Part shown: piece after piece, positions 17,178 through 41,759 of the stretch
How the letters are laid out: every line of letters starts with the position of its first letter
Position numbering within the stretch: position 1 is the first letter of the stretch
NCBI GenBank assembly: GCA_039815185.1
Contig: JBCBZT010000059.1
Span: 1 to 43,852, forward strand
Length of the DNA: 43,852 bases
Reading direction: 5' to 3'
DNA from: Cyanobacteria bacterium P01_A01_bin.123
GTDB lineage: Bacteria > Cyanobacteriota > Cyanobacteriia > Phormidesmidales > Phormidesmidaceae
Notes under the pieces: model-generated
The model's database searches: none
The model's input: the letters and a program-made list of their open reading frames with translations, nothing else
Told to the model about the DNA's origin: nothing
Made by a program: the position numbers and the translations under genes

Positions 17178-17521
17178 ACGCAGCCCCAATCAACTACCCA
17201 ATCGACTGCACCTACAGGGCGACAATTTTTGCAGAGTCCACTCCTGGCCCCTAACAGAACGAGCCCACCGCGAATCACGCTAAGCTGGCAAGAGGTTAGC
17301 CACATCCGTATTTGAAAAGCCTCTGCCTGCAAGGGATTTGGCGCACCAGCAAAACAAGCTATAGGATTAAAAAAGACCCCCTATACCCTCAATAACTAGA
17401 TGGGTGCGTATCACCGTATCAGTGCACCGATTTAAAGAACTGTCCCAATTCTGAGGAAGGGTGGGGGCAACGATATCATCATGAGGCATTGATATCCCCG
17501 TGGCACGTCCCCCCCTCCACC

Positions 17522-20500
17522 ATGCCCCCCGCCAATCCCGATCGGCCAATCAAACTTGAATTAGAAATTGCCGCCAACCATCCTTCCCTACTGGACGGAT
17601 TGGAAACCTGGCTCAAATTAGGCCTAATCAGCGATCGCCAAGTCAGAGCCTTCTGCCAGCGATCGCTCACCTGCCCTGTCCCAGTCATTACCCTCTCCTC
17701 CCCCTCCCGCCAACCCACCAGGACAACAGTTGCAAACACCAATGCAATCCCCACCCCATCACCCCATCGCACCCCCACCTCATCACCCCCCAAACCTTCC
17801 AAACCCAGCTTAGTCAACACCACCCTCAGCCGCCTCGTCGCCGAACTCAGCGTCGTCTGGCTACTCTGCCTCGGCGTCTTCCTCGTGGTCGTGTCGTCAG
17901 CCTTGCTGGCAGCAGCCCAATGGAGCATTTTTTCGCCCACAGCCCAGTATTTGGTGCTGTTTGCCTACACTGGCGTATTCTGGGGGATTGGCTTGTGGGC
18001 CAGTCGCCAATCCCGCTTAGCACTGACTGCTAAAACCTTGCAAACTGTGAGTTTGCTGCTGGTGCCCATTAATCTTTGGGCCATGAACGGCTTACAGATT
18101 ATCCAGGCCAATTTGGGATTACTCGTGGCCATTGGGGCAACGCTATTACTGGGATTAGCCAGCTATCGAAATTTCAAATTCTATGACGATCCAACCAGAG
18201 GGATAGCCGGAGGGTTCCCAAAACTCAGCCTGCTCAATTTCCTAGGGTTAGCGGGGCTGCATTGGTTTTGGCATGGTGAAACCCTCCCCCTATGGGTGGT
18301 GTATGGCGGCACGATTGCCACCGCAATCGCACTTTTAAGCCAATCTCCTTTACGTCGACAGTGGCACAGTAATACTCCAGCAGATTCACCCATACTCAAT
18401 GGCCCCAGACTATTAGTGCTCTATGCTCTGGGCATTGTCATGATGCGGGGGTTGGCCAATCCAGCCATCGAACCTCAGGCCCTAGGCTTAGCCGTGGGCA
18501 TTTGTGGCGCAATGTTGTGCGCCCTGGCCCTTGAGGCTTGGTCTCCCCGCTTAAAGAGATCTAGTAAACCGCGTCTAAGCCAGGCATCAGCAACTAATCA
18601 AACAACCCCCAATCCGTTTGGAGAAGGCCCCCTCACGCCCAACGTCGAGTCCCGCGAGACCACTGAGCCAGGGGATACCCCACCGATAACACCCACACCA
18701 AAACCGTCATTCACCCAGCTTTGGATTGTGATCGGTCGGGGGCTGATGGTGATCGGTTGGCTAATGGCCGTTGGCACTCTACCTGTCCAGGCTTTGGGGG
18801 TCAGTTTACTGGGCTTATCCCTACGAACCCATCGTCTCAGACGACTGTGGTTGCGGCGAGATTTAGTCGTGGCCTTGGGTCTTGGGTTGCAGTTGATTTG
18901 GCTGGGCTGGCGGGGACTGCCTGAGACAATGCGGCAACCTGCGATCGCCCTAGCCACCAGATTAACGGGCACAGCAGGGATGGACTGGGTGCTGCTGGGC
19001 ATTGCCTATTTCCCCTATGTAGTGGCGATGGTCGCGATTGCTGACTGGCTGGTTCGGCAACGGAAATCACCCTTAGCCAAACTGACCTATGGCTTAGGGT
19101 TAGTGCTGGGCATGTATCTGACTTTGATCAGCGCATTTGACACCACTGTCCTAGCACTCAATCTGATTGCCTCGACAATCACGCTTTTGATTGTGACCCT
19201 GCGGCGACGTCAACAAGCTGCTGGGATTTCAGCTTTAGTCTATAGCACCCACGGGTTGGGCTTGTTGACGATATTTGTCGCGATCGCGGATGCCTTCCCA
19301 ACGCTATCAATCGAATCGGTTTTAGCCCTCTGTTTTGGCAGCACGGCAGTGGAGTTGGGGCTGAGCGTTGGGCCTCGTAACCCCTGGCGACGCAGCGCTT
19401 GGCTGTTGGGCAATGGACTGCTGGGCTTGAGCGATCTGCTGTTGCTGGGCTATGGCTTGGCCCAAGGATTCGAGGCAAGCTGGATGCTACTGGGCTTTGT
19501 ACCGCCCTTAGTGTTAACCCTCATCAGCACGCGTCCAGCACTGCAACGGCGACAGGCAAGCCATACCCTAGCCGTCATCACACTCTTGTTTGCGACCCTG
19601 CTTTGCCTCTTTACCCCCGCTAATCGACTCATGGGCTTAGGCACTGCCACAGCGCTCATGGGGAGTTTGAGCGTGATGCGTTCCCGTCGCCTCACCGCTG
19701 GCTTAACGGTTGGGTTAGGTTTGGGGCTGGTTGCCAGCCTGATTCACGATTTGCCGTCTCCGATATCGCCCCTGACTCGAATGCAGTGGTACCTGATCGG
19801 CGCGATCGCGTGTGGCATTCTCTGGTTGATTTGGCATGGGTTGCGACGACACAGGGCTGAAGATCGGCAGTCGCTAGTATCGGCCTATCAGATTGCTGTC
19901 AACGGTTGGGGATTTAGCCTCTGCTTCGCCTTACTGATCGTGATGAGCTTAGAAGCTTACCTGCACTACTTAGATCTACGGGCGTTTCAACCCACCTTTG
20001 CCTTTGCCGCTGGGGGACTGGTGTTAGCCGGATTAATTCGCAATGGGCGATCGCTCAATGACTCAGCCCTGCTGGCGATCGGCTGGGCTATAGAGTTAAC
20101 GGTTGCAGAAGTTTTGGCGCAGCAGAGCCCGGATGCGCTCACGCTGGCGATCGCCAATATTGTTCTTGGTGCGCTTAGTTTGGGCCTAGGCACGCTGTTG
20201 TCGCGGCGATTCCGCCCCCTCCCGGTGAGTTTACAAGCCTGGCCAATCCTATATAGTGCCCTGGCACTCATGCTGCGGGTTGCTCAGTTCAACAGTTGGA
20301 CGGGATTCCTAACGTTGTCTGCTGGCCTCATTGCCCTAGAAGTGGGTCGCCAACAGCGACAAGGTTGGCTACGGGCGATCGCGTTCATCATTATGTCTAT
20401 TGCTTGGTATGAACTGGTGATTTACCAGATGCTCCAAGCGCCAGAAGGCAATCCGGCTGATGGCTGGGTGATTTTGGCTGGGGTAGCGGCGGTGATTATG

Positions 20501-21667
20501 GGAGCCTACCAGCTCTTCGCCCGCTTACTCAGTTCGCGCGTTGGATCACACCTTGGATTACCGCCCGCAGAATTTCGCTGGGCCGCCCACTTCCACTGGT
20601 TCATCGGCACCGGGTTGTTGTGGCAGTCGGCATTCTTGATCAATGACGCATTGCAGACAGCGCCCCTGGCCTTTGCGATTGGGGTGGCCTTGGTCGTCTA
20701 TGCCCTCGCCCACGGTCGATGGTCTAACCAGAGAGGGGGGACCGCAGCAATATCGGCCCCAGTTGCTACCGACAACGGCGGTGCAAATTCTACAGCGACA
20801 AACCAGACAAGCCCCCAGTCAGCGCCACGTCGAACGATTCGCCCCGGTACTGGCGAGAAGGTTGCTTGGACCTGGGTCGGCATTAGTCAACTGCTGGGCC
20901 TGGCGGTTTATGCCCGACTGCTATTCCCTGGACTGCAAGTATTAGGTGGCTGGATAGGTGTTTTGGCCTCTGTTGTTGCATCACTGTTTTATTACGGGGC
21001 TTGGACCCGCTGGGGCTGGCCCCAGCGTCCGTGGCGTCAAACTGCGATCGCGTTGCCGATTACAACCGCCATTTACGGTCTTTGGGCCGGCATCAACGTC
21101 GTCAATCTTTGGGTAATCGCCGGATTTTATGGGGGGTTATCATGGCGATCGCGCCGCATCCGCCTCTCTTATCTCAGTGGTCTGTTAATCTTAATCGCAA
21201 TTTATCAGTGGCTGGTTGAACAGCGGATTAGTGATGTCATGGCGTACATCCTGCCGTTGGGTCTGCTCTTGCTGTATATCGCCCAGGTTGATCCACGGTT
21301 TCAGCAACGTCAGTCTTCTGGTCAACGACACGCACTCAGGCTGTTGGGTACAGGCTTAATTTTGGGCATTGCCCTCGTGAGCGATCGCTGGACGGGTATC
21401 CCAGTCGGGTTGATGAGCTTGGGCGCGATTGCCCTTGGCCTAGTCATGCAAGTCCGCGCGTTCCTCTATGTGGGCACCGCGATTTTGGTCTTCAACGTGC
21501 TCAACCAATTGGTCTTGCTCAATGGCGAATACCCCCTGACGAAATGGGTGGTGGGCATGGTGGTGGGTGTGTTGCTCATCTGGATTGCTGCCGATTTTGA
21601 ACGCCGTCGCGAGCAGTGGTCGTCCTTGGCCCAGCGATGGCAGGCAGCGTTGAGCCAGTGGGAATAA
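17522..21667 (+). CDS. Very large polytopic membrane protein (DUF2157-like, cyanobacterial conserved hypothetical)
   Basis: LLDGLETWLKLGLISD N-terminus, ELSVVWLLCLGVFLVVVSS, dozens of hydrophobic segments, C-terminal RAFLYVGT...WIAADFERRRE. Confidence 0.75.
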   Translation: MPPANPDRPIKLELEIAANHPSLLDGLETWLKLGLISDRQVRAFCQRSLTCPVPVITLSSPSRQPTRTTVANTNAIPTPSPHRTPTSSPPKPSKPSLVNTTLSRLVAELSVVWLLCLGVFLVVVSSALLAAAQWSIFSPTAQYLVLFAYTGVFWGIGLWASRQSRLALTAKTLQTVSLLLVPINLWAMNGLQIIQANLGLLVAIGATLLLGLASYRNFKFYDDPTRGIAGGFPKLSLLNFLGLAGLHWFWHGETLPLWVVYGGTIATAIALLSQSPLRRQWHSNTPADSPILNGPRLLVLYALGIVMMRGLANPAIEPQALGLAVGICGAMLCALALEAWSPRLKRSSKPRLSQASATNQTTPNPFGEGPLTPNVESRETTEPGDTPPITPTPKPSFTQLWIVIGRGLMVIGWLMAVGTLPVQALGVSLLGLSLRTHRLRRLWLRRDLVVALGLGLQLIWLGWRGLPETMRQPAIALATRLTGTAGMDWVLLGIAYFPYVVAMVAIADWLVRQRKSPLAKLTYGLGLVLGMYLTLISAFDTTVLALNLIASTITLLIVTLRRRQQAAGISALVYSTHGLGLLTIFVAIADAFPTLSIESVLALCFGSTAVELGLSVGPRNPWRRSAWLLGNGLLGLSDLLLLGYGLAQGFEASWMLLGFVPPLVLTLISTRPALQRRQASHTLAVITLLFATLLCLFTPANRLMGLGTATALMGSLSVMRSRRLTAGLTVGLGLGLVASLIHDLPSPISPLTRMQWYLIGAIACGILWLIWHGLRRHRAEDRQSLVSAYQIAVNGWGFSLCFALLIVMSLEAYLHYLDLRAFQPTFAFAAGGLVLAGLIRNGRSLNDSALLAIGWAIELTVAEVLAQQSPDALTLAIANIVLGALSLGLGTLLSRRFRPLPVSLQAWPILYSALALMLRVAQFNSWTGFLTLSAGLIALEVGRQQRQGWLRAIAFIIMSIAWYELVIYQMLQAPEGNPADGWVILAGVAAVIMGAYQLFARLLSSRVGSHLGLPPAEFRWAAHFHWFIGTGLLWQSAFLINDALQTAPLAFAIGVALVVYALAHGRWSNQRGGTAAISAPVATDNGGANSTATNQTSPQSAPRRTIRPGTGEKVAWTWVGISQLLGLAVYARLLFPGLQVLGGWIGVLASVVASLFYYGAWTRWGWPQRPWRQTAIALPITTAIYGLWAGINVVNLWVIAGFYGGLSWRSRRIRLSYLSGLLILIAIYQWLVEQRISDVMAYILPLGLLLLYIAQVDPRFQQRQSSGQRHALRLLGTGLILGIALVSDRWTGIPVGLMSLGAIALGLVMQVRAFLYVGTAILVFNVLNQLVLLNGEYPLTKWVVGMVVGVLLIWIAADFERRREQWSSLAQRWQAALSQWE

Positions 21668-22368: not shown

Positions 22369-22584
22369 CTATCTCAAACGCTGGTCTACCCAATGACGAG
22401 CACTCCGGACGGCAGCTTGACGGGTCAACGCACAAGGGACGGCCACAGCACACCCATAGGCATAGTCAGCCCAAGCTGCATAAAGCGTTTGGCCGTCAAA
22501 GTCACTTTGATCAATCTGGATCGTAAAGCCTCGATAGCTAAACGTCAGCACAATATTGGGGTGATCTGGGTCAGCAATGATCAT
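22369..22584 (-). CDS. Hypothetical protein
   Basis: ATG at 22584 overlaps the upstream stop (ATGA), suggesting translational coupling. Confidence 0.65.
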   Translation of the reverse strand: MIIADPDHPNIVLTFSYRGFTIQIDQSDFDGQTLYAAWADYAYGCAVAVPCALTRQAAVRSARHWVDQRLR

Positions 22585-23921
22585 CCTTTCAATCGCTGCT
22601 GCCACTCGGCATCGATCTTATCGGCTTGTTCAAATTCTTGTTGCGTCAGATCCGTTTCAGTGGTGTAGGCCAAGTCTGCTTTGTCCACTACGGTTTGGCT
22701 AATGAATTTTTGGGCGTAGCTCAGCTTTTGTTGCAGAGCTGCTTTGGCATCATTCAGTGCGACCGCCCGGTTTTGGCGCTGCTCGTTACCCGATTCAATT
22801 TTTTGATTTTTCCGCTGCACCCAAAAATAGCGAATTAGCGGCAATCCCAAAAATGCCGTACCGTATCCCAGCAGTAGCCAGTAAATCGAGTTTACAAAGG
22901 CCACTAATCCACCCAATTCAGCCACTAGGGATTGATCGCGGAGTAAACTACCCAGCACTAATGCCCCAATCAGGTTGACAGCCCCCAAGCCAATGGCCAT
23001 GGTAATTTGGCCAGAGGTCGCTTCACTAAACAACTGGGGCTTCGCTTTCAAATAGGCTGACACTGACGCCCGGCCGCGCTCTTCGGCCATGACCTGCAAT
23101 TCGGGGAAGTGATAAATAATTTGACCGTCTGGACTCACCTCAGGTCGCCCGTTGAAGCGGCTCAACACAGGCAGCATATAGTCTTCATATTCGTTGGCCC
23201 AGCCTTCTCCCAGGTCATCAAGATAGGGTGCAATCTGCTCAGCAACCACCGCTCCACCATTGTTGCGAATCACGTTACCAATGGCTTTCCAACGTTTCTC
23301 ATCGAGGTCAGCATTCGGATCGCCATCCCCAAATAAGAAGGAAAAGATCGCCTCTAAAAAGTTCAGCTTGCCGTCTTGCCCTCGACTGGCTTGCCCTCTA
23401 CTGACCTGCCCGACGGCAGTTTGCCGATAGCGCCGCCGTTGGTAATAATTGGGGCTAAATAGATAGAAAGGGTTGTAGCCAATCCACAGCCGGGGCAGAA
23501 AGACCATGCCGCCACCCCCATAGCCACGATCGCGGTTATTGTTACTGTCGCCACGGGAGGAACTAGCGGCGATGACGATGATGGCAATTGCCACCACAAT
23601 CAGCAAAATCGACACCAGCAGCAAAATCCCAAAGGAAATGCGAATCAGGTAAAACAGAACGTCCCACACCTTCTGCCAAGCCTGCTGAAACCGCAACCGC
23701 CAGTATTTGCTTTGCAAAATACCGCGAAAATTTTTGGGGAACTGGTAGGCAATTTCGCCCACCTCAGACACCTGTAAGTGGGCCTGAGTTTCCGATGCCA
23801 GGGCCAACAACCCCTGCTCAGCCACTTTGATATCTAGACCCGCCTGGGCAGCCACATCCCCAACCGTAACGCGGTAATCTAACTGCTCCACTGCTTTCAT
23901 CACAGCAGGTTCCAAGGCCAT
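22581..23921 (-). CDS. Conserved cyanobacterial/plastid membrane protein (At5g03900-like)
   Basis: RVTVGDVAAQAGL, FYLIRISFG, NFLEAIFSFLFGDGDPNA, GGAVVAEQIAPYLD, FNGRPEVS..G.IIYHFPELQ. Confidence 0.8.
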   Translation of the reverse strand: MALEPAVMKAVEQLDYRVTVGDVAAQAGLDIKVAEQGLLALASETQAHLQVSEVGEIAYQFPKNFRGILQSKYWRLRFQQAWQKVWDVLFYLIRISFGILLLVSILLIVVAIAIIVIAASSSRGDSNNNRDRGYGGGGMVFLPRLWIGYNPFYLFSPNYYQRRRYRQTAVGQVSRGQASRGQDGKLNFLEAIFSFLFGDGDPNADLDEKRWKAIGNVIRNNGGAVVAEQIAPYLDDLGEGWANEYEDYMLPVLSRFNGRPEVSPDGQIIYHFPELQVMAEERGRASVSAYLKAKPQLFSEATSGQITMAIGLGAVNLIGALVLGSLLRDQSLVAELGGLVAFVNSIYWLLLGYGTAFLGLPLIRYFWVQRKNQKIESGNEQRQNRAVALNDAKAALQQKLSYAQKFISQTVVDKADLAYTTETDLTQQEFEQADKIDAEWQQRLKG

Positions 23922-31545: not shown

Positions 31546-31650
31546 TATAGCGCTGGCCAGATTGCTTAATGCACCGAGTATCGCTGGGATGCTCAGTACA
31601 CAAGCACTCTGGCTTGCCGTAGCGCCCAAAGCTTTGTGGCTACGGCTATA
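31546..31650 (-). mobile_element. 105-bp MITE, copy 2
   Basis: Reverse-complement homologue of 16581-16685. Confidence 0.9.
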
Positions 31651-31784
31651 TCTCGCTCGTATAGAGAAGATACCTGGACAACAAGCACCTATGCCCAATC
31701 TAGGATTACTTACATGGATATTCTAAAAGCTTGGCAGACAGCACGCAGGGCGATCGCGCCAAAACCAGATTTTGATCGCAGCTG

Positions 31785-33223: not shown

Positions 33224-33250
33224 CTGGGAATCTCTGATTTTGGGATTTTT

Positions 33251-33355
33251 TATAGCGCTGGTCAGATTGCTTAATGCACCGAGTATCGCTGGGATGCTCA
33301 GCACACAAGCAATCTGGCTCGCCGTAGCGCACAAAGCTTTGTGGCTACGGCTATA
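33251..33355 (-). mobile_element. 105-bp MITE, copy 3
   Basis: Near-identical to 31546-31650; abuts the stop codon at 33356-33358. Confidence 0.9.
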
Positions 33356-34447
33356 TCAGGCGCTCTGCTTAAGTCTCGTGAACCCCAGACCTAACAGACC
33401 CAAACCCAGTAAAGCAGTTGGTTCAGGGACTGATTCTTTAGGCGCTTCAGGCGTATCAGACTTAAATAGATGCAGGTGAGACTCCCCTGTCCCTTCGAGC
33501 TTGCCTGCAATCAATGTGCCGTTGATGTGGCCATTGTTAAAATCCACATCGGCATTGGGAGCCAAAATGCTGCCCATAAAGCCAACCTCTGAAATATTTA
33601 GAGTGCTGGCTCCTTCGATATTGAACAACACGTTGCGGCCCCGCTCACGACACCAAAAATGCACCGTGTCAGTCGCACCAGGGTTGCAGTCTTGATCGCC
33701 AAAGAAGATGCCAAACCCACTCAGGTCAACGGCGTTGCCTTCAATGTTGATAATCACTTTGGCTGTTTCAGGGACATCGAAAACCAGCTTTTTAAGGTTA
33801 TCTAAGGCACCCGCTTCGATGTTAAATACATTCTCGTTTTCATCGGTGCCGATCAGGGTTGCCAGGGTAGCATCATCGTACTGTTCGTAGAGAATACTCG
33901 TCGTCGCGTTGGAGATCGTGGTGGCCATGCCCCCGCCAATAGGTTCTACCAGCGTGGTGTAATTTAACCCCATTGCACTGGTGGCAATACTACTGGCCAA
34001 CGCTTTTAACGATTGCTCAAGGTCAGCAAAATCAACGGGCGTATCTTGGCGGATCTCGCCTCGGCGAATGATGGTGTTGTCGGGGGCACGAAACTCGAAA
34101 CCCACATCATCAGTCACGGTGGCGCTACCCCCATACACTGCATCACCGTAAACCTTACCGTTGCTCAAATTGACATCACCACCCACCACCAGGGTGTCGC
34201 CGTGGCCATCGCCCTGGAGCTTGGCCCCGACGCCAAAAGTATTGGCGGTGAAGTCGCCTCCGACTGCCAACTTGCCTTGGACGTCAGTGTTTGTGAGGGT
34301 GTAGTCTCCAAACACGACGACGTTATAGTCGGCGGCTTCGCCAAGGGAGTAGGAAATCGCTTCGGCTTTGAGAGCTCCCCCAAACGCGATCGCGACTGGC
34401 AACGCCGTTAGGGTCAATGTCCGCTGTAAAGAACTGCTATGACGCAT
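33356..34447 (-). CDS. PEP-CTERM surface protein with choice-of-anchor A domain
   Basis: YNVVVFGD....TDVQGKLAVGGD, LVVGGD, VIINI.G, VLFNI..A, GSILAPNA...NGHINGTLIA...GESH; C-terminal VPEPTALLGLGLLGLG. Confidence 0.9.
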   Translation of the reverse strand: MRHSSSLQRTLTLTALPVAIAFGGALKAEAISYSLGEAADYNVVVFGDYTLTNTDVQGKLAVGGDFTANTFGVGAKLQGDGHGDTLVVGGDVNLSNGKVYGDAVYGGSATVTDDVGFEFRAPDNTIIRRGEIRQDTPVDFADLEQSLKALASSIATSAMGLNYTTLVEPIGGGMATTISNATTSILYEQYDDATLATLIGTDENENVFNIEAGALDNLKKLVFDVPETAKVIINIEGNAVDLSGFGIFFGDQDCNPGATDTVHFWCRERGRNVLFNIEGASTLNISEVGFMGSILAPNADVDFNNGHINGTLIAGKLEGTGESHLHLFKSDTPEAPKESVPEPTALLGLGLLGLGFTRLKQSA

Positions 34448-34542: not shown

Positions 34543-35466
34543 TTACATCCTTACATGATCTAGATGAACCTCATCCGAGATGAAACCCTTCCCGTCTCGC
34601 GCTGCCCGAAAGATGCGCTCCTCTAGATTGAGGATTGTGAGTTCAAATCCCCGTTGCATCCCAGCTTGCATCATGATCCAGATCCGCTTGGTGAGGTGGT
34701 GATAGTCGATGCCGTCAGCCATTAGGTTTTCTTCGGTGCGGATCGCGTTAGGCGTGATCAGGGTTGCAGCTTTGGCAGTGGCTTGGGTGGCGATCGCAGG
34801 CGGTTTTTTAGCCGCGATCGCCTTTGCCTGATCGGTAGCCTCGCGGATATTGACCGTCAATGGGGTTTGACGCAGCAGTTTAGCTAGGGCGACTGAATGG
34901 TCAACCAGCAATCGGGCGTCTCGATTGGCGGTGACTGAATATTTGCCGTTTGCTTCGATGAAGCCTTCATTGGTGGTATCTAAGGATGGAAACCAGGCCA
35001 CGGTGTTATTGGGTGGATTGATGCAGCCAAGTTGGTTGAAGTCGTAGCAGGTCTGAGCGATACATGGACTCCCGCCTGCGGTATCTCCCACCAGCACCAG
35101 ACCAAACACTTTGTTGTAGAGCGGAGATTGCCCCGTGGCGGGATTCGCATGGGTGCGACAGATGCCATGCAGGCGCTCAATCAGCTTTTGGCTCTCTGAA
35201 GATCGCATGCCGCTGACCACGGGTGTACCTAAAACTAAAATGTCGGCTTGCTTAATGCGATCGAACACGTCGAGAAACGGGGCTCCTGGCCCTGCCGCTA
35301 GGGTTGCCTCGGGCAAAATCTGCATATCAGCGATGCGCTGCTGCTGGATTTTGCAACCCTGTTGTTGATAAAGGGGGGCGACGAGAGCCCAGAGGGCTTC
35401 GGTATTGCTAAGTTCTGGGGAGGTTTTTAGGGTGCAGTTGAGAAATAGGACGTTGAGGGAGTGCAT
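34543..35466 (-). CDS. Flavodoxin-fold/NADPH-dependent FMN reductase family protein with a C-terminal extension that appears truncated
   Basis: LFLNCTLKTSPELSNTEAL, IKQADILVLGTPV..G.RSS..QKLIERL, LYNKVFG; likely ATG at 35466. Confidence 0.75.
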   Translation of the reverse strand: MHSLNVLFLNCTLKTSPELSNTEALWALVAPLYQQQGCKIQQQRIADMQILPEATLAAGPGAPFLDVFDRIKQADILVLGTPVVSGMRSSESQKLIERLHGICRTHANPATGQSPLYNKVFGLVLVGDTAGGSPCIAQTCYDFNQLGCINPPNNTVAWFPSLDTTNEGFIEANGKYSVTANRDARLLVDHSVALAKLLRQTPLTVNIREATDQAKAIAAKKPPAIATQATAKAATLITPNAIRTEENLMADGIDYHHLTKRIWIMMQAGMQRGFELTILNLEERIFRAARDGKGFISDEVHLDHVRM

Positions 35467-35701: not shown

Positions 35702-36700
35702 ATGAACGAAACTCTAGATAACCATTCCAACCCGCTCAGTCCAAAGGCGATGTTGGTTGCATCCCGCGCCCTATCCGCTTCCCGCCCCGCTTTGATTGGA
35801 TTTTTGATCGCCCGGGGGTCGGAGTTGAGTGGCGGGATAATCCAGCCGATCTCGTTTTGCAACATCCTCTTTGTGGGCAATCTCTGTGCAGCACTGGTGG
35901 TGGGCTTTTGGTTTGGATTTAGCAATATTGTCAGCGATTTGAAGGCGCTCAAACCCAAGGCGCTGATTGGCTTGTTTCTCAATGGGTGTTTGGCCACGCT
36001 GCTGTCGGCGCTGATTTTTATTGGCTTGCAATATACCAGCGTGACCAATGCGGTTTTATTAGGAAGATTGGGGCCAGTATTGTTTGCCCTAGTCGGAGCG
36101 CTGCTGCTGGGTAAGCAGATTAAACGATTGGAATGGTTTGGGTTTTCTCTGATTGGAGTGGGTGTGGTCGCGATCGCGCTTAAAACCAGCAATTTTCAAA
36201 TCAATCGCGGGGACTTTTTAATCCTGCTCTCGACTGTCGTATTCGCAGTATCAGCCCTGGTCAATAAGCTGATGGTCGCGAAAGCCGCAACGTTGTCTTC
36301 AGTGGTGTTTTCGCGCAATCTGCTGTCATCGGTGATCTTTTTCTTCATTGCCATGCAGCTGTTTGGGCCTGAGCATTTTGGCGATGCATTTAGCGGCAAA
36401 TTGTGGATTTTGATGTCGATTTACGCACTGATTGTGATTGTATTTGCCCAACTGCTTTGGTATGCATCGGTTGACAATCTCGACTCCAGAACGGTAGGGC
36501 GATTGACGGTGCTATCCCCCATTTTTGGGGTGACCTATGCGTTTTTGTTGAACGGTGAGCGGCCTTCTGGGATTCAGGTGGTGACGTTAATTATTGTGAT
36601 TATCGGGGTATTAGTTGCCAGTTTAGGCGGGCAAAAGAAACCGGAATCTAAGGCGGAGATGATGATGCATGAACCTGAAAATGCGGCGTCGGCACCGTAG
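35702..36700 (+). CDS. DMT/EamA family transporter
   Basis: About 10 TM helices; ISFCNILFVGNLCA, GLQYTSVTNAVLLGRLGPV, LSPIFGVTYAFLLNGERP. Confidence 0.85.
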   Translation: MNETLDNHSNPLSPKAMLVASRALSASRPALIGFLIARGSELSGGIIQPISFCNILFVGNLCAALVVGFWFGFSNIVSDLKALKPKALIGLFLNGCLATLLSALIFIGLQYTSVTNAVLLGRLGPVLFALVGALLLGKQIKRLEWFGFSLIGVGVVAIALKTSNFQINRGDFLILLSTVVFAVSALVNKLMVAKAATLSSVVFSRNLLSSVIFFFIAMQLFGPEHFGDAFSGKLWILMSIYALIVIVFAQLLWYASVDNLDSRTVGRLTVLSPIFGVTYAFLLNGERPSGIQVVTLIIVIIGVLVASLGGQKKPESKAEMMMHEPENAASAP

Positions 36701-36843
36701 GGATAGGGTGCTTGACAAGGGAGAGAAATCAGGAATTAGTAAGAAAACTGACGTTCAGCTTCGGTACCTCTAGTCTAGACAGGAGCGGTATGGCGATCGC
36801 GAGATTCGATGCCACTTCATATTGCTGAATTCTCATCATTGGA

Positions 36844-37113
36844 CTACTGCCAAATTCGTCGGTTTAGATTCAAATCTTCGACAATGCCGATCATCATCTG
36901 TAAAGTTTGACAGTACTCCAATATTGGCTGGAAGGTAAGGATACTGGCAAAAATTGGCGGTTCAAATAAATCCTCCTCATAGGGAATCGCAATGTAGACA
37001 CTGTTATTCACAAAAGCAATGCGGATATCCTTTCCGATTTTGTGTTGTAAATCGACTAAACGTTGCATCAAGCTGGTCGAGAGCACATAGCGCGCCTCAA
37101 TTTGGTCAACAAA
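36844..37113 (-). pseudogene. C-terminal remnant of a DUF3137-like gene
   Basis: DQIEARYVLSTSLMQRL...FVNNSVYIAIPYEEDLFEP...IVEDLNLNRRIW, with an in-frame stop immediately upstream (37114-37116). Confidence 0.7.
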
Positions 37114-37312
37114 TTAGAACTGTCAAAGTCCGAATTTTTTCTCCTTTAAGGAGATTCGACTATAGTTCATATGAACTCACTTGCCATTTGCGTATATCGA
37201 ATTTAATTTCTCTTGGCATCCTCTAATCCATCAATCGGGCTATCCAAAGACTATCCTCATATTTCTGGGTTTTCATACGGATGTGCCCGACACAAATCCC
37301 AGGAATCCGCCG

Positions 37313-38740
37313 ATGTTCCAAGCCGCCGACTACCTCAACCTCCTGCAACAGATTGAGAATTTTTTTGCCGATGCTGCCACCCCCAACGCCATCACCAAGC
37401 GCCTCGATCCAGACGAATTGCGCGATCGCGTGTCCCTCGATCTCCCCACCGAAGGAACATCCCTAGAAGACCTGCAAACCGATATTGCCAACTACCTCAC
37501 CTACGCCGTCAAAACGGCCCACCCCGGTTACTTCAACCAACTTTGGGGCGGCTTCAGCGCCCCCTGCTTCATGGGAGACATGCTCACCAGCGCCACCAAC
37601 ACCTCCATGTACACCCATGAAGTTGCCCCCATCGCCACTCTGATTGAGAAAACCCTAATCGCCAAAATGGGCCAATTAGTGGGATTCCCCAATCCAGAAG
37701 GTCAATTCACCACCGGCGGCAGCAACGGCAACTTAATGGCCATGGCGATCGCCCGTCATCAAGCCCTCCCCATCCTCAAGCAAATGGGCATGGCCAATGG
37801 CCCCCAACTCATCGCCTTCATCTCCGCAGATGCCCACTACTCCTTCGCTAAAGCCGCACATCTACTCGGATTAGGCACCGCCCAACTCTGGCCCGTCCCC
37901 GTCGATCAAGCCGGAAAAATGATCGTGGCCGAATTGGAGGCGCTGATCGCCAAAGCCCATACCCAGGGGGCTCATCCCTTCTTTATCGCCGGAACGGCAG
38001 GCACCACTGTGCGCGGAGCCTACGATCCGTTTGCTGAGATCGCCGCAGTGGCCCAGCGAGAAGGGCTGTGGTTCCACGTCGATGGGGCCTGGGGAGCGAG
38101 CGTGCTGCTCAGCCCCACCCATCAGCATCTGATGCAGGGTGTTGAACTGGCTGATTCCGTAGTTTGGGATGCTCACAAAATGATGGGCATGACCCTGATG
38201 TGCTCAGTGCTGCTGGTCAAACAGCAGGGCAGAATGCTGAGTACCTTTTCCACCCACGGCACCGATTACCTGTTTCATACCGCTGAAGTAAACCCAGTTG
38301 ATTTGGGCCCCGTCGATTTAGGGCCCAGCACGATGCATTGCGGTCGGCGAGTCGATGCCGTCAAACTCTGGCTGACCTGGAAACACTTGGGCGATCGCGG
38401 CTGGGCCAGCTTAATTGACCAATATTTTGCATTGGCCGCCCAGGCAGAGGCCATCATCAATACCCACGAATCCCTAGAACTGGTAACTCCCCGCCAATCC
38501 CTCAACCTCTGCTTCCAATACATCCCCCAAAATCCCCAACGAAACCCCAACGACCTGACGCTGAAAATCCGCCAGGCCCTGATAGCAGCAGGCGTAGCAA
38601 TGGTGAACTATGCCCAAATCGGGGGCAAAGTCGTCTTTCGCCTGGTGATTTGCAACAACCAGACGCATCCAGAAGATATTGAGGCATTCTTTGAAGCCCT
38701 AATCGCGATCGGCCACCGATTAGAACAGGAGACGCTCTAA
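37313..38740 (+). CDS. Group II PLP-dependent decarboxylase, cysteine sulfinic acid decarboxylase (CSAD)-type
   Basis: HPGYFNQLW...NTSMYT.E, TTGGSNGN, AHYS, AGTAGTTV.GAYDP, WFHVDGAWG, WDAHK (PLP lysine at 38177); W-x19-S-x-Y motif at 37544-37612. Confidence 0.85.
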   Translation: MFQAADYLNLLQQIENFFADAATPNAITKRLDPDELRDRVSLDLPTEGTSLEDLQTDIANYLTYAVKTAHPGYFNQLWGGFSAPCFMGDMLTSATNTSMYTHEVAPIATLIEKTLIAKMGQLVGFPNPEGQFTTGGSNGNLMAMAIARHQALPILKQMGMANGPQLIAFISADAHYSFAKAAHLLGLGTAQLWPVPVDQAGKMIVAELEALIAKAHTQGAHPFFIAGTAGTTVRGAYDPFAEIAAVAQREGLWFHVDGAWGASVLLSPTHQHLMQGVELADSVVWDAHKMMGMTLMCSVLLVKQQGRMLSTFSTHGTDYLFHTAEVNPVDLGPVDLGPSTMHCGRRVDAVKLWLTWKHLGDRGWASLIDQYFALAAQAEAIINTHESLELVTPRQSLNLCFQYIPQNPQRNPNDLTLKIRQALIAAGVAMVNYAQIGGKVVFRLVICNNQTHPEDIEAFFEALIAIGHRLEQETL

Positions 38741-38862
38741 TGCAAACCCTAGACTTAGAAGTCCTGTTTCAGCAGTTACGCCACTATCGCGATGATCTGA
38801 GACCAGCCCTCAAGGGCCATCACACCGCAGATTTGTCGACCCTCGGGCCTTGGTTACTTTGA
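38740..38862 (+). CDS. 40-aa ORF translationally coupled to the decarboxylase (small protein or deletion remnant)
   Basis: TAATG overlap at 38738-38742 with AGGAG upstream; MQTLDLEVLFQQLRHYRDDLRPALKGHHTADLSTLGPWLL*; ends 6 nt before the next ATG. Confidence 0.45.
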   Translation: MQTLDLEVLFQQLRHYRDDLRPALKGHHTADLSTLGPWLL

Positions 38863-38868
38863 AATCCT

Positions 38869-39933
38869 ATGAAACTGCTAAGCATTTGCGATCCGACTCG
38901 ATACAGCAGTCCCCCCTTGGACGTGCCCACCTTCTATCAACACCTCGCGCGCGATTCTAGAGTGACCTTCTACCACATCCCAACGCCCAAAGTCTTTACC
39001 GGGCAATTACCCAAAGTCCAGGCAGTGCTGTCAGCGGGTGAACTCACCTATGAAGAATTTTTAGTCCTGGGGGCAGCAGCCCAAGATTGGATCAGCCTGG
39101 CAGACATTGATGTGATCTTTTGCCGCACGCTAAAACCGTTTCCACCGGGTTACCTAGATGTGTTAAACACATGGGAAAAATTTACCCGCTTTGTCAATCG
39201 ACCCGCCAGCAAAAAAGCACAAATTAAATCTGACTTCTTACTGAAAGTGGCCAAGGACTATATCCCAGCGGCAACTGTCACCTCCGACTGGACGCAGGCC
39301 CTGACCTTCTTTGAACAGTTTCAAATCATCGTCGCCAAACAAGCCAATAGCTGCGGCGGGCGCGGGGTATTCAAGATTTGGTATCAAAACGGAGCCTTTC
39401 AAGTTGACAACGTCTTGGCAAGCACGCAGACATTCCCAACCTTTCAAGCGGTGATGGGGTATCTCCAAGTTGGTCAATCTGAACCCATTCAGTTCTGCCG
39501 CTATCTCCACCGTACCCATGCCGGAGACAAACGCGTTGTCGTCGTGGATGGCGAAATTTATGGCAGTTATCTGCGCCGATCTCAAAGTGGTCATTGGGTC
39601 AATAATGTTAGCAGCGACGGGGCATGCACCCTAGCAGACCTCACCGCTGACGAGGTTGAGGCCATCCAGCATACCGTCGGGCATTATCAGGCGTTGGGAT
39701 TATACACCCTGGGTTACGACTTTTTGTTGGACGACGATGGCACCTGGCGCATCAGTGAAATCAACGCTGGCAACATTGGTGGCTTTGCTCGCCTAGAACT
39801 GCTGACCGGGCAACCCATGATGGACCGCCTGATTAGCTGGTTGATTGAATATGCCCAGCGACCTCCCCTGGATCCGATCGCACAGAGTCCGATCGCACAG
39901 ACGCCTGACTCAGCCATGATGGGAGTAACCTGA
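38869..39933 (+). CDS. ATP-grasp ligase, glutathione synthetase/RimK-like
   Basis: FVNRP, IVAKQANSCGGRGVFKI, GDKRVVVVDG, GYDFL, ISEINAGNIGG. Confidence 0.85.
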   Translation: MKLLSICDPTRYSSPPLDVPTFYQHLARDSRVTFYHIPTPKVFTGQLPKVQAVLSAGELTYEEFLVLGAAAQDWISLADIDVIFCRTLKPFPPGYLDVLNTWEKFTRFVNRPASKKAQIKSDFLLKVAKDYIPAATVTSDWTQALTFFEQFQIIVAKQANSCGGRGVFKIWYQNGAFQVDNVLASTQTFPTFQAVMGYLQVGQSEPIQFCRYLHRTHAGDKRVVVVDGEIYGSYLRRSQSGHWVNNVSSDGACTLADLTADEVEAIQHTVGHYQALGLYTLGYDFLLDDDGTWRISEINAGNIGGFARLELLTGQPMMDRLISWLIEYAQRPPLDPIAQSPIAQTPDSAMMGVT

Positions 39934-40481
39934 TGTTTAAAGTCCTGACGACAATTCCCGAACAATCCGTGTTGAACATTCGGCCAGCCAATCCGCAAGA
40001 TTACCCTGCGATCGCATCCATTTATAACGAAGCCATTGCCCATGGAGGCATCACCATGGACGGTCAACCCTACACAGTGGAAGATATTCAGGCGATCGCC
40101 CAAAAGATGAATCACCGGGAAGGCTTATGGGTGGGGGAAGTCTCTGGGCAGGCAATTGGCTGGGGGATTATCAAACGCTACAGCGATCGCATCGGGTATC
40201 AAGTTTGCTGCGAAACTTCGATCTATCTCACCTTTGCAGAAACTGGAAAAGGCTACGGTAGCGCTTTACAAAAAGCGTTAATGAAACAGGTTGCAGACTA
40301 CGGCTACCACCACATCGTGGCAAAGATTCTAGCGGCAAACTGGGGCAGTGTTCAATTTCATCAGCGGTTGGGATTTGAAATTGTAGGCACCCAAAAAGAC
40401 ATTGGGTTTATCAATGGAGCCTGGCATGACGTTGTCATCATGCAGTGTCTTTTATCGAAAATCAGAGCCGTCGTTTCTTAG
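39933..40481 (+). CDS. GNAT N-acetyltransferase (phosphinothricin/methionine-sulfoximine acetyltransferase-like)
   Basis: IRPA...D..AIASIYNEAI, ETSIYL....GKGYGSAL, N.GSVQFHQRLGFEIVG...IGF..G.WHDV; TGATG overlap with the ligase. Confidence 0.9.
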   Translation: MFKVLTTIPEQSVLNIRPANPQDYPAIASIYNEAIAHGGITMDGQPYTVEDIQAIAQKMNHREGLWVGEVSGQAIGWGIIKRYSDRIGYQVCCETSIYLTFAETGKGYGSALQKALMKQVADYGYHHIVAKILAANWGSVQFHQRLGFEIVGTQKDIGFINGAWHDVVIMQCLLSKIRAVVS

Positions 40482-40979
40482 ACAAATTTAAGATTTTTCT
40501 CAAAAGAAGCAGTGCTTCTTCAATTGTTTCTCACCTCCAACCAATCTAGCCTTGGTAACTTTAAATCAAGAGCCATTCCAAGCGTGAACAACCTGCTTTC
40601 AAGTTGACTTGATGCAGCTTATTCATACATTGCAATCGCTCCCTTTAAGGCTGTTTGGCCAAGACTATTCTTTAATTCTCCTTAAAAGTAGTCAGTCAGA
40701 CTTCAATCATTGAAAATCCCTTTTTTTAGAGGCTGCCTTAAAGGTGATTGACTTTGATATTCAGCACCTAACCCCTGCCCTGCCTAAAAAGGGAATAGAC
40801 AGCCTCAGAACCCGCCTTTATGAGAGGGGTTTAGGAAAAAAAATGTTTGGATAACAACACTAGAACTTTTCACACAGCTTTTTGCAGGAGGATGATTATC
40901 TGACGTTATTGGGACTGAGCCAAACAATATTGATTACTCCTTGTCACTTATCCCATGACTAAATTCTGAGGTTTTTACC

Positions 40980-41759
40980 ATGATCCAGACCACTTTTCAT
41001 CCGACAATGCTTAATCCTGTTAATGCTTATCCTGAGCGTCTTCAAAGGCTCATTCAAACCCTTCAACAAGCGTGCGATTTTACCCCTGGGCAAATTAGAG
41101 AGATAGTTCTAAGGGCACAGATCTCTACTGAAGACTTGATGCCTTGGGCAAATTTTGATCATCCCGTTGCAGATAGCTACGGTCGTCAGCTCGTATTTCA
41201 CGGGGGGCACTTTGAAATTATGGTAATGTCCTGGATGCCGGGAGATTTCAGCGCCATTCATGATCACGGGGCAACCGACTGGGGAGCCGTTCAATGCTTT
41301 GGAGCCGCAGAACATTACATTTATCGCTTCGCCGAAGGGGTTTTGAGTACACTCAAGACTGCCCACTATAGCCCTAGGATGGTGCATACGGTTGATCACA
41401 ACCTGATTCATCAAATGGGCAATGCCGGAGCCCGGCCCTTCCTCAGTCTCCACGTTTATGGTTGTGAACAGATTGGCGAAACCATTACTGGCAACGCTCG
41501 AATTTTTGACCTGCTAGAAGGCAGCATTCAGTACACCAATGGCGGCGTTTTCTTCAGTTTGCCAGAGGCTCAAATCAATCAACGCCTACTGGGCCTCAAG
41601 GCCGATCGAGAAACCACCCTCCGGCACCATGACCTAATGAGCGATCGCATCCGTCGCATTCTAAAAACACAACCCAACGCTGATTTAGCTCAAAAACTCG
41701 CCCTTTTGCAAACAAGGGCCCAACAGTTGAACACCTATCAATCAAGGTATCTGACATAA
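40980..41759 (+). CDS. cdo: Cysteine dioxygenase (Arg-type, cupin) with C-terminal extension
   Basis: YGR (equivalent to mammalian Y58-R60), MSW.PG..SAIHDHG, LIHQMGN, LSLHVY; 3-His iron site and Ser-His-Tyr triad. Confidence 0.85.
   Translation: MIQTTFHPTMLNPVNAYPERLQRLIQTLQQACDFTPGQIREIVLRAQISTEDLMPWANFDHPVADSYGRQLVFHGGHFEIMVMSWMPGDFSAIHDHGATDWGAVQCFGAAEHYIYRFAEGVLSTLKTAHYSPRMVHTVDHNLIHQMGNAGARPFLSLHVYGCEQIGETITGNARIFDLLEGSIQYTNGGVFFSLPEAQINQRLLGLKADRETTLRHHDLMSDRIRRILKTQPNADLAQKLALLQTRAQQLNTYQSRYLT

Follow-up and report, generated by a model that had tools for sequence, protein, structure and literature searches.

The window analysed here, a 43,852-nucleotide stretch (positions 1 to 43,852 of contig JBCBZT010000059.1, assembly GCA_039815185.1) from Cyanobacteria bacterium P01_A01_bin.123, holds a cluster of genes around a cysteine sulfinate decarboxylase (CSAD) and a cysteine dioxygenase (CDO1), in which a known core is embedded in an apparently undescribed two-ligase system that this strain possesses as a partly decayed copy. 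To judge from gene content here and in related genomes, the locus consists of two modules: module B, with an EamA transporter, the ligase LIG1, a GNAT acetyltransferase, CDO1 and often a heme/Rieske set, and module A, with CSAD, a second dioxygenase-like protein (CDO2) and the ligase LIG2. We propose, with confidence that is about evenly divided for and against, that this two-module locus would encode a non-ribosomal pathway making small amides, some of them N-acetylated, from oxidised cysteine, which would then be exported. Identifiers starting with G, L, P and X denote genomes, loci, proteins and close strains, respectively.

The core of the locus: CSAD and its dioxygenases

The best PDB matches of the decarboxylase were found to be mouse and human CSAD (E ~1e-98), and the protein displays both W78-x19-S98-x-Y100 and the pyridoxal phosphate lysine K289. 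It is 65% identical over 488 columns to the characterised enzyme of Synechococcus sp. PCC 7335 (P0361), and its W-x19-S-x-Y motif (W-S-Y below) was matched in 98/120 homologues among the matches listed; F/W-x19-S-x-Y is quoted as the Synechococcus CSAD motif in the accessible part of a 2026 preprint. CDO1 combines three histidines with the Ser-His-Tyr triad of an Arg-type enzyme: Y67, R69, W85, H94, H96, H144, S156, H158 and Y160 vary little or not at all across 11 orthologues. CDO1 matches the CDO of B. subtilis with an E of 1e-7, and its active-site residues would have the roles that they have in rat CDO. Because of the CSAD motif, the 65% identity to a characterised enzyme and the full Arg-type CDO site, the route from cysteine to (hypo)taurine in this locus is, as far as sequence can tell, the known pathway, and both enzyme assignments made in an earlier, sequence-only reading of this DNA were borne out. 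The same route in marine cyanobacteria is stated in works citing Agnello et al. (2013, ACS Chem Biol 8:2264), in the portions available.

That reading had also made CDO1 the core partner of CSAD, which the comparison with other genomes does not support. CDO1 sits 2.2 kb downstream of CSAD, and the gene directly coupled to CSAD encodes a 40-aa stub rather than an intact dioxygenase. The 40-aa open reading frame (ORF) aligns with the N-terminus of CDO2 proteins, which are cysteine-dioxygenase-like, 162–192 aa long and encoded directly 3' of CSAD in 7/10 CSAD loci fetched, as well as in L044, L049 and L057. CDO2 would thus be the usual partner of CSAD, and CDO1 would not, the 40-aa ORF being, on the strength of this alignment, what is left of CDO2 in this strain; it had also been considered as a precursor peptide for LIG1, which was rejected on the same grounds. 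No intact CDO2 copy was found in this genome, and the stub region is bridged without an insert in contigs of X3 and X5. Intact CDO2 carries YxR, HxH, a distal His and HxY, and in the Atlas it falls with CDO clusters (0.95; TM 0.80–0.84). Its PDB profile match (E 0.019) and its hhalign probability (4.8%) are weak, no Pfam match was found, and its predicted structure, with a predicted local distance difference test (pLDDT) of 39, was not used as evidence. Since CSAD and CDO1 are present in G409, G411, G414 and G415, where CDO2 was not found, it is plausible that CDO1 can substitute for CDO2.

Variants of this core were seen elsewhere. On L049 (G344:C43, 775-4654), a methyltransferase, an opine/octopine dehydrogenase, CSAD and CDO2 lie in one run, a candidate tauropine or N-methyltaurine pathway; LIG1 and LIG2 were not found in its genome, G344. 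Symploca and Caldora records contain a CDO1-type domain fused to an S-adenosylmethionine (SAM) methyltransferase (L037, 8023-9678; L038, 7657-9174), a type similar to a Bacteroidota cluster in the Atlas, and a further CSAD-like paralogue (L040, L041, L042, L043), whose motif is F-x19-T-x-H and which adjoins sulfotransferase, PALP or TauD-methyltransferase genes. Decarboxylases with Y-x19-S-x-Y adjoin another RimK-like ATP-grasp gene in two genomes that belong to the phylum but not to this class (L051, L052).

A second ligase that tracks CSAD

A truncated gene upstream of the EamA gene, on the opposite strand, is 56% identical to residues 1-281 of P0121. Intact orthologues of this protein, LIG2, have 575–604 aa and join an FMN-reductase-like (flavodoxin) domain to a cyanophycin-synthetase/GshF-like ATP-grasp domain: the C-terminus of P0121 matches CphA/GshF, and the ligase domain matches CphA structures with a profile E of 1e-51. 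LIG2 is neither CphA nor Ngg, which were both rejected since it scores far below their cut-offs (153 versus 850 bits for TIGR02068, with no second Mur-like domain; 84 versus 569 bits for TIGR03103, against which the CSAD-LIG2 and LIG1-GNAT fusions described below score 114 and 25 bits); the genome has a separate cphA-like gene, and an Asn-synthase gene lies beside LIG2 in only one locus (L190).

In the window, LIG2 retains the flavodoxin domain and the first ~48 residues of the ATP-grasp region, lacking ~295 residues (885 nt), and the remainder was not found elsewhere in the genome. The junction was compared in four of 10 listed runs: contigs of X3 and X5 have ~1.15 kb extra between 34575 and 34578, a contig of X2 has the same junction as the window and one of X8 continues unlike the window there. 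The extra DNA would encode the LIG2 ATP-grasp domain. An assembly error is unlikely, the X2 contig spanning the same junction, with the proviso that X2 may come from the same study as the present DNA.

The sequence-only reading had cast LIG1 as the ligase linked to CSAD, a role for which LIG2, broken here, is the better candidate. Two 831-aa proteins consist of a W-S-Y CSAD fused to a LIG2 domain (E 2e-76 to P0121), with no significant match to LIG1. Because it is fused to CSAD twice and tracks it (12/13 genomes, see below), LIG2 appears to be a better putative taurine ligase than LIG1. LIG2 is also divergent from or adjoining LIG1, EamA or CDO1 in L009, L061, L202, L211, L214, L215 and L217, and every part of both modules is found in one run on contig L057.

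LIG1 and its acetyltransferase

LIG1 shows the fold, the Asp/Glu-x-Asn metal site and the ATP lysine of ATP-grasp amide ligases. Its profile match to E. coli GshB (1gsa; E 1e-26, 22% identity) and its predicted model (pLDDT 93; Foldseek TMq 0.76) agree on a fold shared over nearly the full chain, and K157, D284, E297, N299, R86, R222 and R236 show next to no variation among 34 members. It is nonetheless not a housekeeping GshB, a possibility that was rejected given scores below both GshB cut-offs (58 versus 299 bits for TIGR01380 and 72 versus 272 bits for PRK05246), while the genome's own GshB, encoded elsewhere, scores 417 and belongs to a separate clade.

The TSPT substrate loop of GshB is GNIG in LIG1. 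In GshB, this loop holds the gamma-glutamyl amino group (a role that a literature search did not confirm). Owing to this replacement, a gamma-glutamyl (gamma-Glu-Cys) donor is doubtful for LIG1, and so is the gamma-glutamyl product suggested in the sequence-only reading. By analogy with the synthesis of N-acetylglutaminylglutamine amide (NAGGN), the loss of TSPT fits an N-acetylated donor, which would be made by the partner GNAT. The closest hidden Markov model (HMM) and structure matches of GNAT are PAT/MddA/ArsN1, alpha-amino acetyltransferases of glutamate analogues, although it remains below all the resistance equivalog cut-offs (114 versus 170, 100 versus 210 and 84 versus 300 bits). LIG1 and GNAT form a single protein in P0049, P0076, P0126 and P0144, in 16 metagenome loci and in three complete genomes, and on the LIG1 tree (FastTree, 84 sequences, loci with <290 aligned residues being left out) such fusions fall at three distinct positions.

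Module B and its tie to CSAD

LIG1, GNAT, CDO1 and EamA travel together. In 15 named genome LIG1 loci, taken with flanks of 6 kb that contig ends shortened in some cases, the counts are GNAT 13, EamA 13, CDO1 10, heme/Rieske 7, CSAD 4, LIG2 2 and CDO2 1. In 74 metagenome LIG1 loci, many of them short and some redundant, the corresponding counts are EamA 38, GNAT 28, CDO1 25, Rieske 16, LIG2 2 and CSAD 1, and in the 17 of the metagenome loci with at least 3 kb upstream and at least 1.5 kb downstream they are CDO1 13, EamA 13, GNAT 11, Rieske 9 and CSAD 1. In the arrangement that recurs, two small ORFs are followed by an MsrQ-like heme and Rieske protein, a membrane protein, EamA, LIG1, GNAT and CDO1, and filamentous genomes share their gene order with picocyanobacterial-type ones at ~40% identity. 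The conserved linkage expected from the sequence-only reading is therefore real, and the neighbourhood analysis did find ligase and acetyltransferase conserved with CSAD/CDO.

This order is difficult to reconcile with the possibility, which we consider highly unlikely, that the locus is a mobile island in decay, whose sulfur- and amide-related enzymes have no single pathway in common. Such an island would be in accord with the patchy presence of the genes (LIG1 in 4/401 genomes of a phylum sample, own genome included, and cluster DNA in 1/24 same-family genomes), the many rearrangements and truncations and the foreign gene fragment inside the locus, but it would not be expected to show recurrent LIG1-GNAT and CSAD-LIG2 fusions and overlapping start and stop codons.

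The tie to CSAD is of a different kind. The other three LIG1 genomes of the phylum sample (G282, G304 and G354, single contigs and 99% complete) carry LIG1-GNAT-CDO1-EamA without CSAD: their five PF00282 matches are three D-N-L proteins, the only group II decarboxylase of G282 being one, and two that are too distant to align with CSAD. Among 15 LIG1 genomes, a W-S-Y CSAD is present in eight (one cut by a contig end), three have only the 45% F-T-H paralogue and four gave no match at 1e-60; no W-S-Y CSAD was found in Adonisia, PCC 7375 and Rivularia. In these 15 genomes LIG2 accompanies W-S-Y CSAD in 8/8 cases, versus 2/7 without it, CDO2 was found in 4/8 versus 0/7, and a CDO1 homologue is present in 15/15. 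In an order sample of 150 genomes that were not chosen on LIG1, 16 were found to have CSAD, which is full in 14 of them, cut in one and truncated in one. Close LIG1 is present in 14 genomes of this sample, of which 11 have CSAD, and LIG2 in 13, of which 12 have CSAD, all three genes being present in 11; nine more genomes carry a distant LIG1 clade, none of them with CSAD.

The counts for close LIG1 and the adjacency of CSAD, EamA and LIG1 in G512, together with the gene order in the window, are what can be said for the idea in the sequence-only reading that LIG1 and GNAT act directly on the (hypo)taurine made by CSAD, producing gamma-glutamyl- or peptidyl-taurine and N-acetyl-taurine, and strains without CSAD could import taurine. 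We nevertheless find this clearly unlikely. The module is intact in the three complete genomes whose decarboxylases are of the D-N-L type or too distant to align, CSAD was found in only 1/74 metagenome loci and not in Adonisia, PCC 7375 or Rivularia, and CSAD-linked loci are confined to one subclade of the LIG1 tree (support 0.91), while the GNAT, CDO1, EamA and Rieske partners extend to deeper branches. In addition, the GNAT is of a type acetylating alpha-amino acids and the TSPT loop of GshB is replaced. Module B hence looks older on the tree, module A having joined it in filamentous strains.

The partners of module B also bear on what it might do. A Rieske-glutamate-synthase-like gene follows LIG1 in L105, L114, L115 and L126, and a Rieske-thiamine-pyrophosphate (TPP) gene in L112, L114 and L126. 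These, both of which precede the Rieske set in this genome, the MsrQ-like heme/Rieske genes in the operon and the resistance acetyltransferases that are the closest models for GNAT would suit a unit for detoxification or sulfur overflow rather than for synthesis of a useful metabolite, with CSAD as an add-on outlet. In such a scheme, CDO1 would drain cysteine, GNAT would acetylate cysteine sulfinate (CSA) or a toxic glutamate analogue (methionine sulfoximine/sulfone), LIG1 would tag the product for export by EamA and the Rieske-linked oxidases would degrade the keto acid. It seems unlikely, however, as ATP-consuming ligases, of which there are two in filamentous strains, and a CSAD-ligase fusion suit synthesis better than disposal, and GNAT scores under every resistance cut-off.

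Other associations of LIG1 were recorded. An OvoA gene (ovothiol synthase) directly follows LIG1-GNAT and CDO1 in L083 (8661-10808), which has a second EamA; a circularly permuted ATP-grasp gene comes after CDO1 in L089, L090, L096, L100, L102, L144 and L145; glutamine-synthetase-like and PRTase-CE genes precede the operon in G304 and G354; and the PCC 7375 record (L010, 6001-10012) has a split LIG1 and a CDO1 disrupted by a transposase-like ORF. The distant LIG1 clade (L092, L094, L098, L099, L103 and L109) is divergent from an isoaspartyl peptidase/asparaginase gene and without GNAT or CDO1, some of its loci lying near a PGM1_C/BesA-like ATP-grasp gene.

A proposed pathway for amides of oxidised cysteine

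The preferred reading, an export pathway for small amides derived from oxidised cysteine, can be laid out in five steps, of which the first two are well founded. CDO would turn cysteine into CSA, and CSAD would turn CSA into hypotaurine, which is oxidised on to taurine. In the third step, suggested by fusion and co-occurrence, LIG2 would form an amide between the amine of (hypo)taurine and a carboxylate that an amino acid or short peptide provides, and its flavin domain may set the oxidation state of the sulfur. In the fourth, the substrate of GNAT would be an acidic amino acid or a related compound (CSA, cysteate, Glu or Asp), which it would N-acetylate; LIG1 would then join this capped donor to another amino acid, comparable to the role of Ngg in making NAGGN. 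This step would require CDO1 and not CSAD. There is a precedent for this in an acetyltransferase and a ligase that make an N-acetyl dipeptide osmolyte, as described in the part of the source available (PMC8070244). In the last step, EamA would export the product, and the membrane heme-b/Rieske set, usually located before EamA, would supply or remove electrons. In intact filamentous strains, both modules together may yield N-acetyl-peptidyl-(hypo)taurine. Since LIG2 and CDO2 are broken in the present strain, CDO1 would feed CSAD and only free (hypo)taurine and the LIG1/GNAT product would be expected.

A bolder version of this proposal is that N-acetylated sulfinate or sulfonate peptides are made by marine cyanobacteria and form a class not yet described, LIG2 being a dedicated taurine/hypotaurine amide ligase and LIG1-GNAT building the capped acyl donor, with a CSAD-independent version in picocyanobacteria. 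The product might then serve benthic filamentous cyanobacteria as an osmolyte or antioxidant, or be an organosulfur compound that they exude, in each case one not recognised so far. We hold this extension to be tentative, and rather more apt to fail than to stand.

Several observations weigh against the pathway as drawn. CSAD occurs without either ligase in 4/16 genomes of the order sample and without LIG1 in five, G508 has CSAD but neither CDO was found in it, and GNAT is missing beside LIG1 in the CSAD-bearing loci L202, L211 and L215. The lysine aligned to K125 of GshB is lost in LIG1. The distant LIG1 clade lies by an isoaspartyl peptidase gene, and as CDO1 was not found in 5/5 such genomes tested, the link of LIG1 to cysteine oxidation is not universal. 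The repeated breakage of LIG2, CDO2 and CSAD (in this strain, G512, G486, G560 and L010) suggests weak selection. Finally, the sampled genomes are kin and mostly drafts, so that the above counts are not independent.

Organization of the locus and its surroundings

The six co-oriented ORFs of the sequence-only reading all lie on the + strand where it had placed them (Table 1), with the TGATG overlap that it noted between the ATP-grasp and GNAT genes; CSAD and the 40-aa ORF overlap by TAATG. Pfam, NCBIfam and PDB families are EamA, group II PLP decarboxylase, GshB/RimK-like ATP-grasp, PAT-like GNAT and CDO. Overlooked were the identity of the CDO2 stub, the truncated LIG2 and a DUF3137 fragment between EamA and CSAD. 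This fragment was not seen in 15 related genome loci and is probably a relic without a link to the pathway. EamA, a conserved member of the LIG1 module, is probably its exporter.

Table 1. Features of the locus, with positions in the window
Feature	Position	Strand	Basis
LIG2, truncated	34543..35466	-	56% identity to P0121 residues 1-281
EamA/DMT transporter	35702..36700	+	PF00892
DUF3137 fragment, 80 aa	36844..37086	-	matches only positions 66-139 of PF11335
CSAD, 475 aa	37313..38740	+	PDB matches, motif, PCC 7335 identity
Putative CDO2 stub, 40 aa	38740..38862	+	aligns with CDO2 N-termini
LIG1, GshB-derived ATP-grasp ligase, 354 aa	38869..39933	+	closest structure E. coli GshB 1gsa
GNAT, PAT/MddA/ArsN1 type	39933..40481	+	structure and HMM matches
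CDO1, Arg-type cysteine dioxygenase, conserved ~90-residue C-terminal extension	40980..41759	+	PF05995

The sequence-only reading had taken HIP1 sites inside the cluster as a sign of long residence. The sites are there, nine in 6058 bp, but because their density (1.49/kb versus 1.13/kb genome-wide) is merely genome-like and cluster DNA is rare among relatives, they reflect cyanobacterial composition and are no proof of long residence. In a DNA search of 40 relatives, the cluster genes were present in 1/24 other same-family genomes and were not found in the sole same-genus genome searched, which is 85% complete. Promoter and terminator scans gave chance-level results (8 versus 6.6 and 8 versus 7.5, respectively), Rfam gave no match, and a plasmid search returned only three distant matches with 26-27% identity.

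The Rieske part of the system lies on another contig of this genome (G000:C84:50046-56690, L146), in an operon with a Rieske-glutamate-synthase-like gene, a Rieske-TPP (pyruvate-oxidase-like) gene, two small ORFs, heme/Rieske genes and a membrane protein gene; this Rieske-fusion operon is uncharacterised and is linked to LIG1 in other genomes. Elsewhere in the window, a short high-copy repeat (33249-33357) recurs almost unchanged on at least six other contigs and has a very high contig depth, with a related stretch near 31600-31730, and two ORFs (17489-21667, 1392 aa; 22581-23921, 446 aa) have no Pfam match.

Comparison with known systems

Bacterial taurine synthesis, as described so far, takes two enzymes and stops at free taurine. 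No published description of the present cluster was found by full-text literature searches, which left subscription papers mostly outside and did not cover supplements. If the proposal is true, the strain with the characterised bacterial CSAD also encodes two unstudied ligases turning cysteine-derived sulfur acids into new small molecules; the marine organosulfur pool would then gain an unknown class of compounds, and ATP-grasp enzymes two new specificities. Cultured PCC 7335, with CSAD, LIG1 and LIG2 in its records, allows a direct test, and the natural deletion in LIG2 between close strains offers a ready-made comparison.

Among the nearest known systems is the CDO and CSAD pathway of PCC 7335, with which the locus shares an orthologous CSAD with the same W-x19-S-x-Y motif and a CDO, and the records of that strain also hold LIG1 (P0081, 67% identity) and LIG2 (P0444, S7335_3410, 75% over the ligase region). 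Compared with the pathway as known, there are here two uncharacterised ligases, a GNAT, an exporter and a heme/Rieske set, and two distinct CDO clades, the usual CDO of CSAD being a stub in this strain. LIG1 shares with E. coli GshB the fold over nearly the whole chain, the metal and ATP residues and three arginines, but differs by its 22% identity, the GNIG in place of TSPT, the lost K125 equivalent and its separate clade. GNAT finds its best structure and HMM matches in PAT/MddA/ArsN1, but it is below every equivalog cut-off and is fused to a ligase in relatives. As for LIG2, it has the ATP-grasp ligase domain of cyanophycin synthetase and GshF (profile E 1e-51), but it is without the Mur-like domain of cyanophycin synthetase, and its fusion partner is an FMN-reductase-like domain or CSAD.

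In terms of chemistry, a parallel is NAGGN synthesis (Ngg/AsnO; TIGR03103), in which, according to the part of the source available (PMC8070244), N-acetylation and peptide-bond formation in one protein yield a capped dipeptide. LIG2 is weakly similar to the TIGR03103 model, while LIG1 is of the GshB type and scores far below the cut-off, no AsnO is present in the locus and the partners are sulfur-oxidising enzymes. Stand-alone ATP-grasp ligases making dipeptides of sulfur amino acids are known from the thiohistidine dipeptide pathways (PMC13674229) and from the Asp-Met ligase LdmS (PMC9486568), which, as far as the available parts of these papers go, involve other sulfur enzymes and hosts; the available part of the former mentions neither cyanobacteria nor CDO nor taurine.

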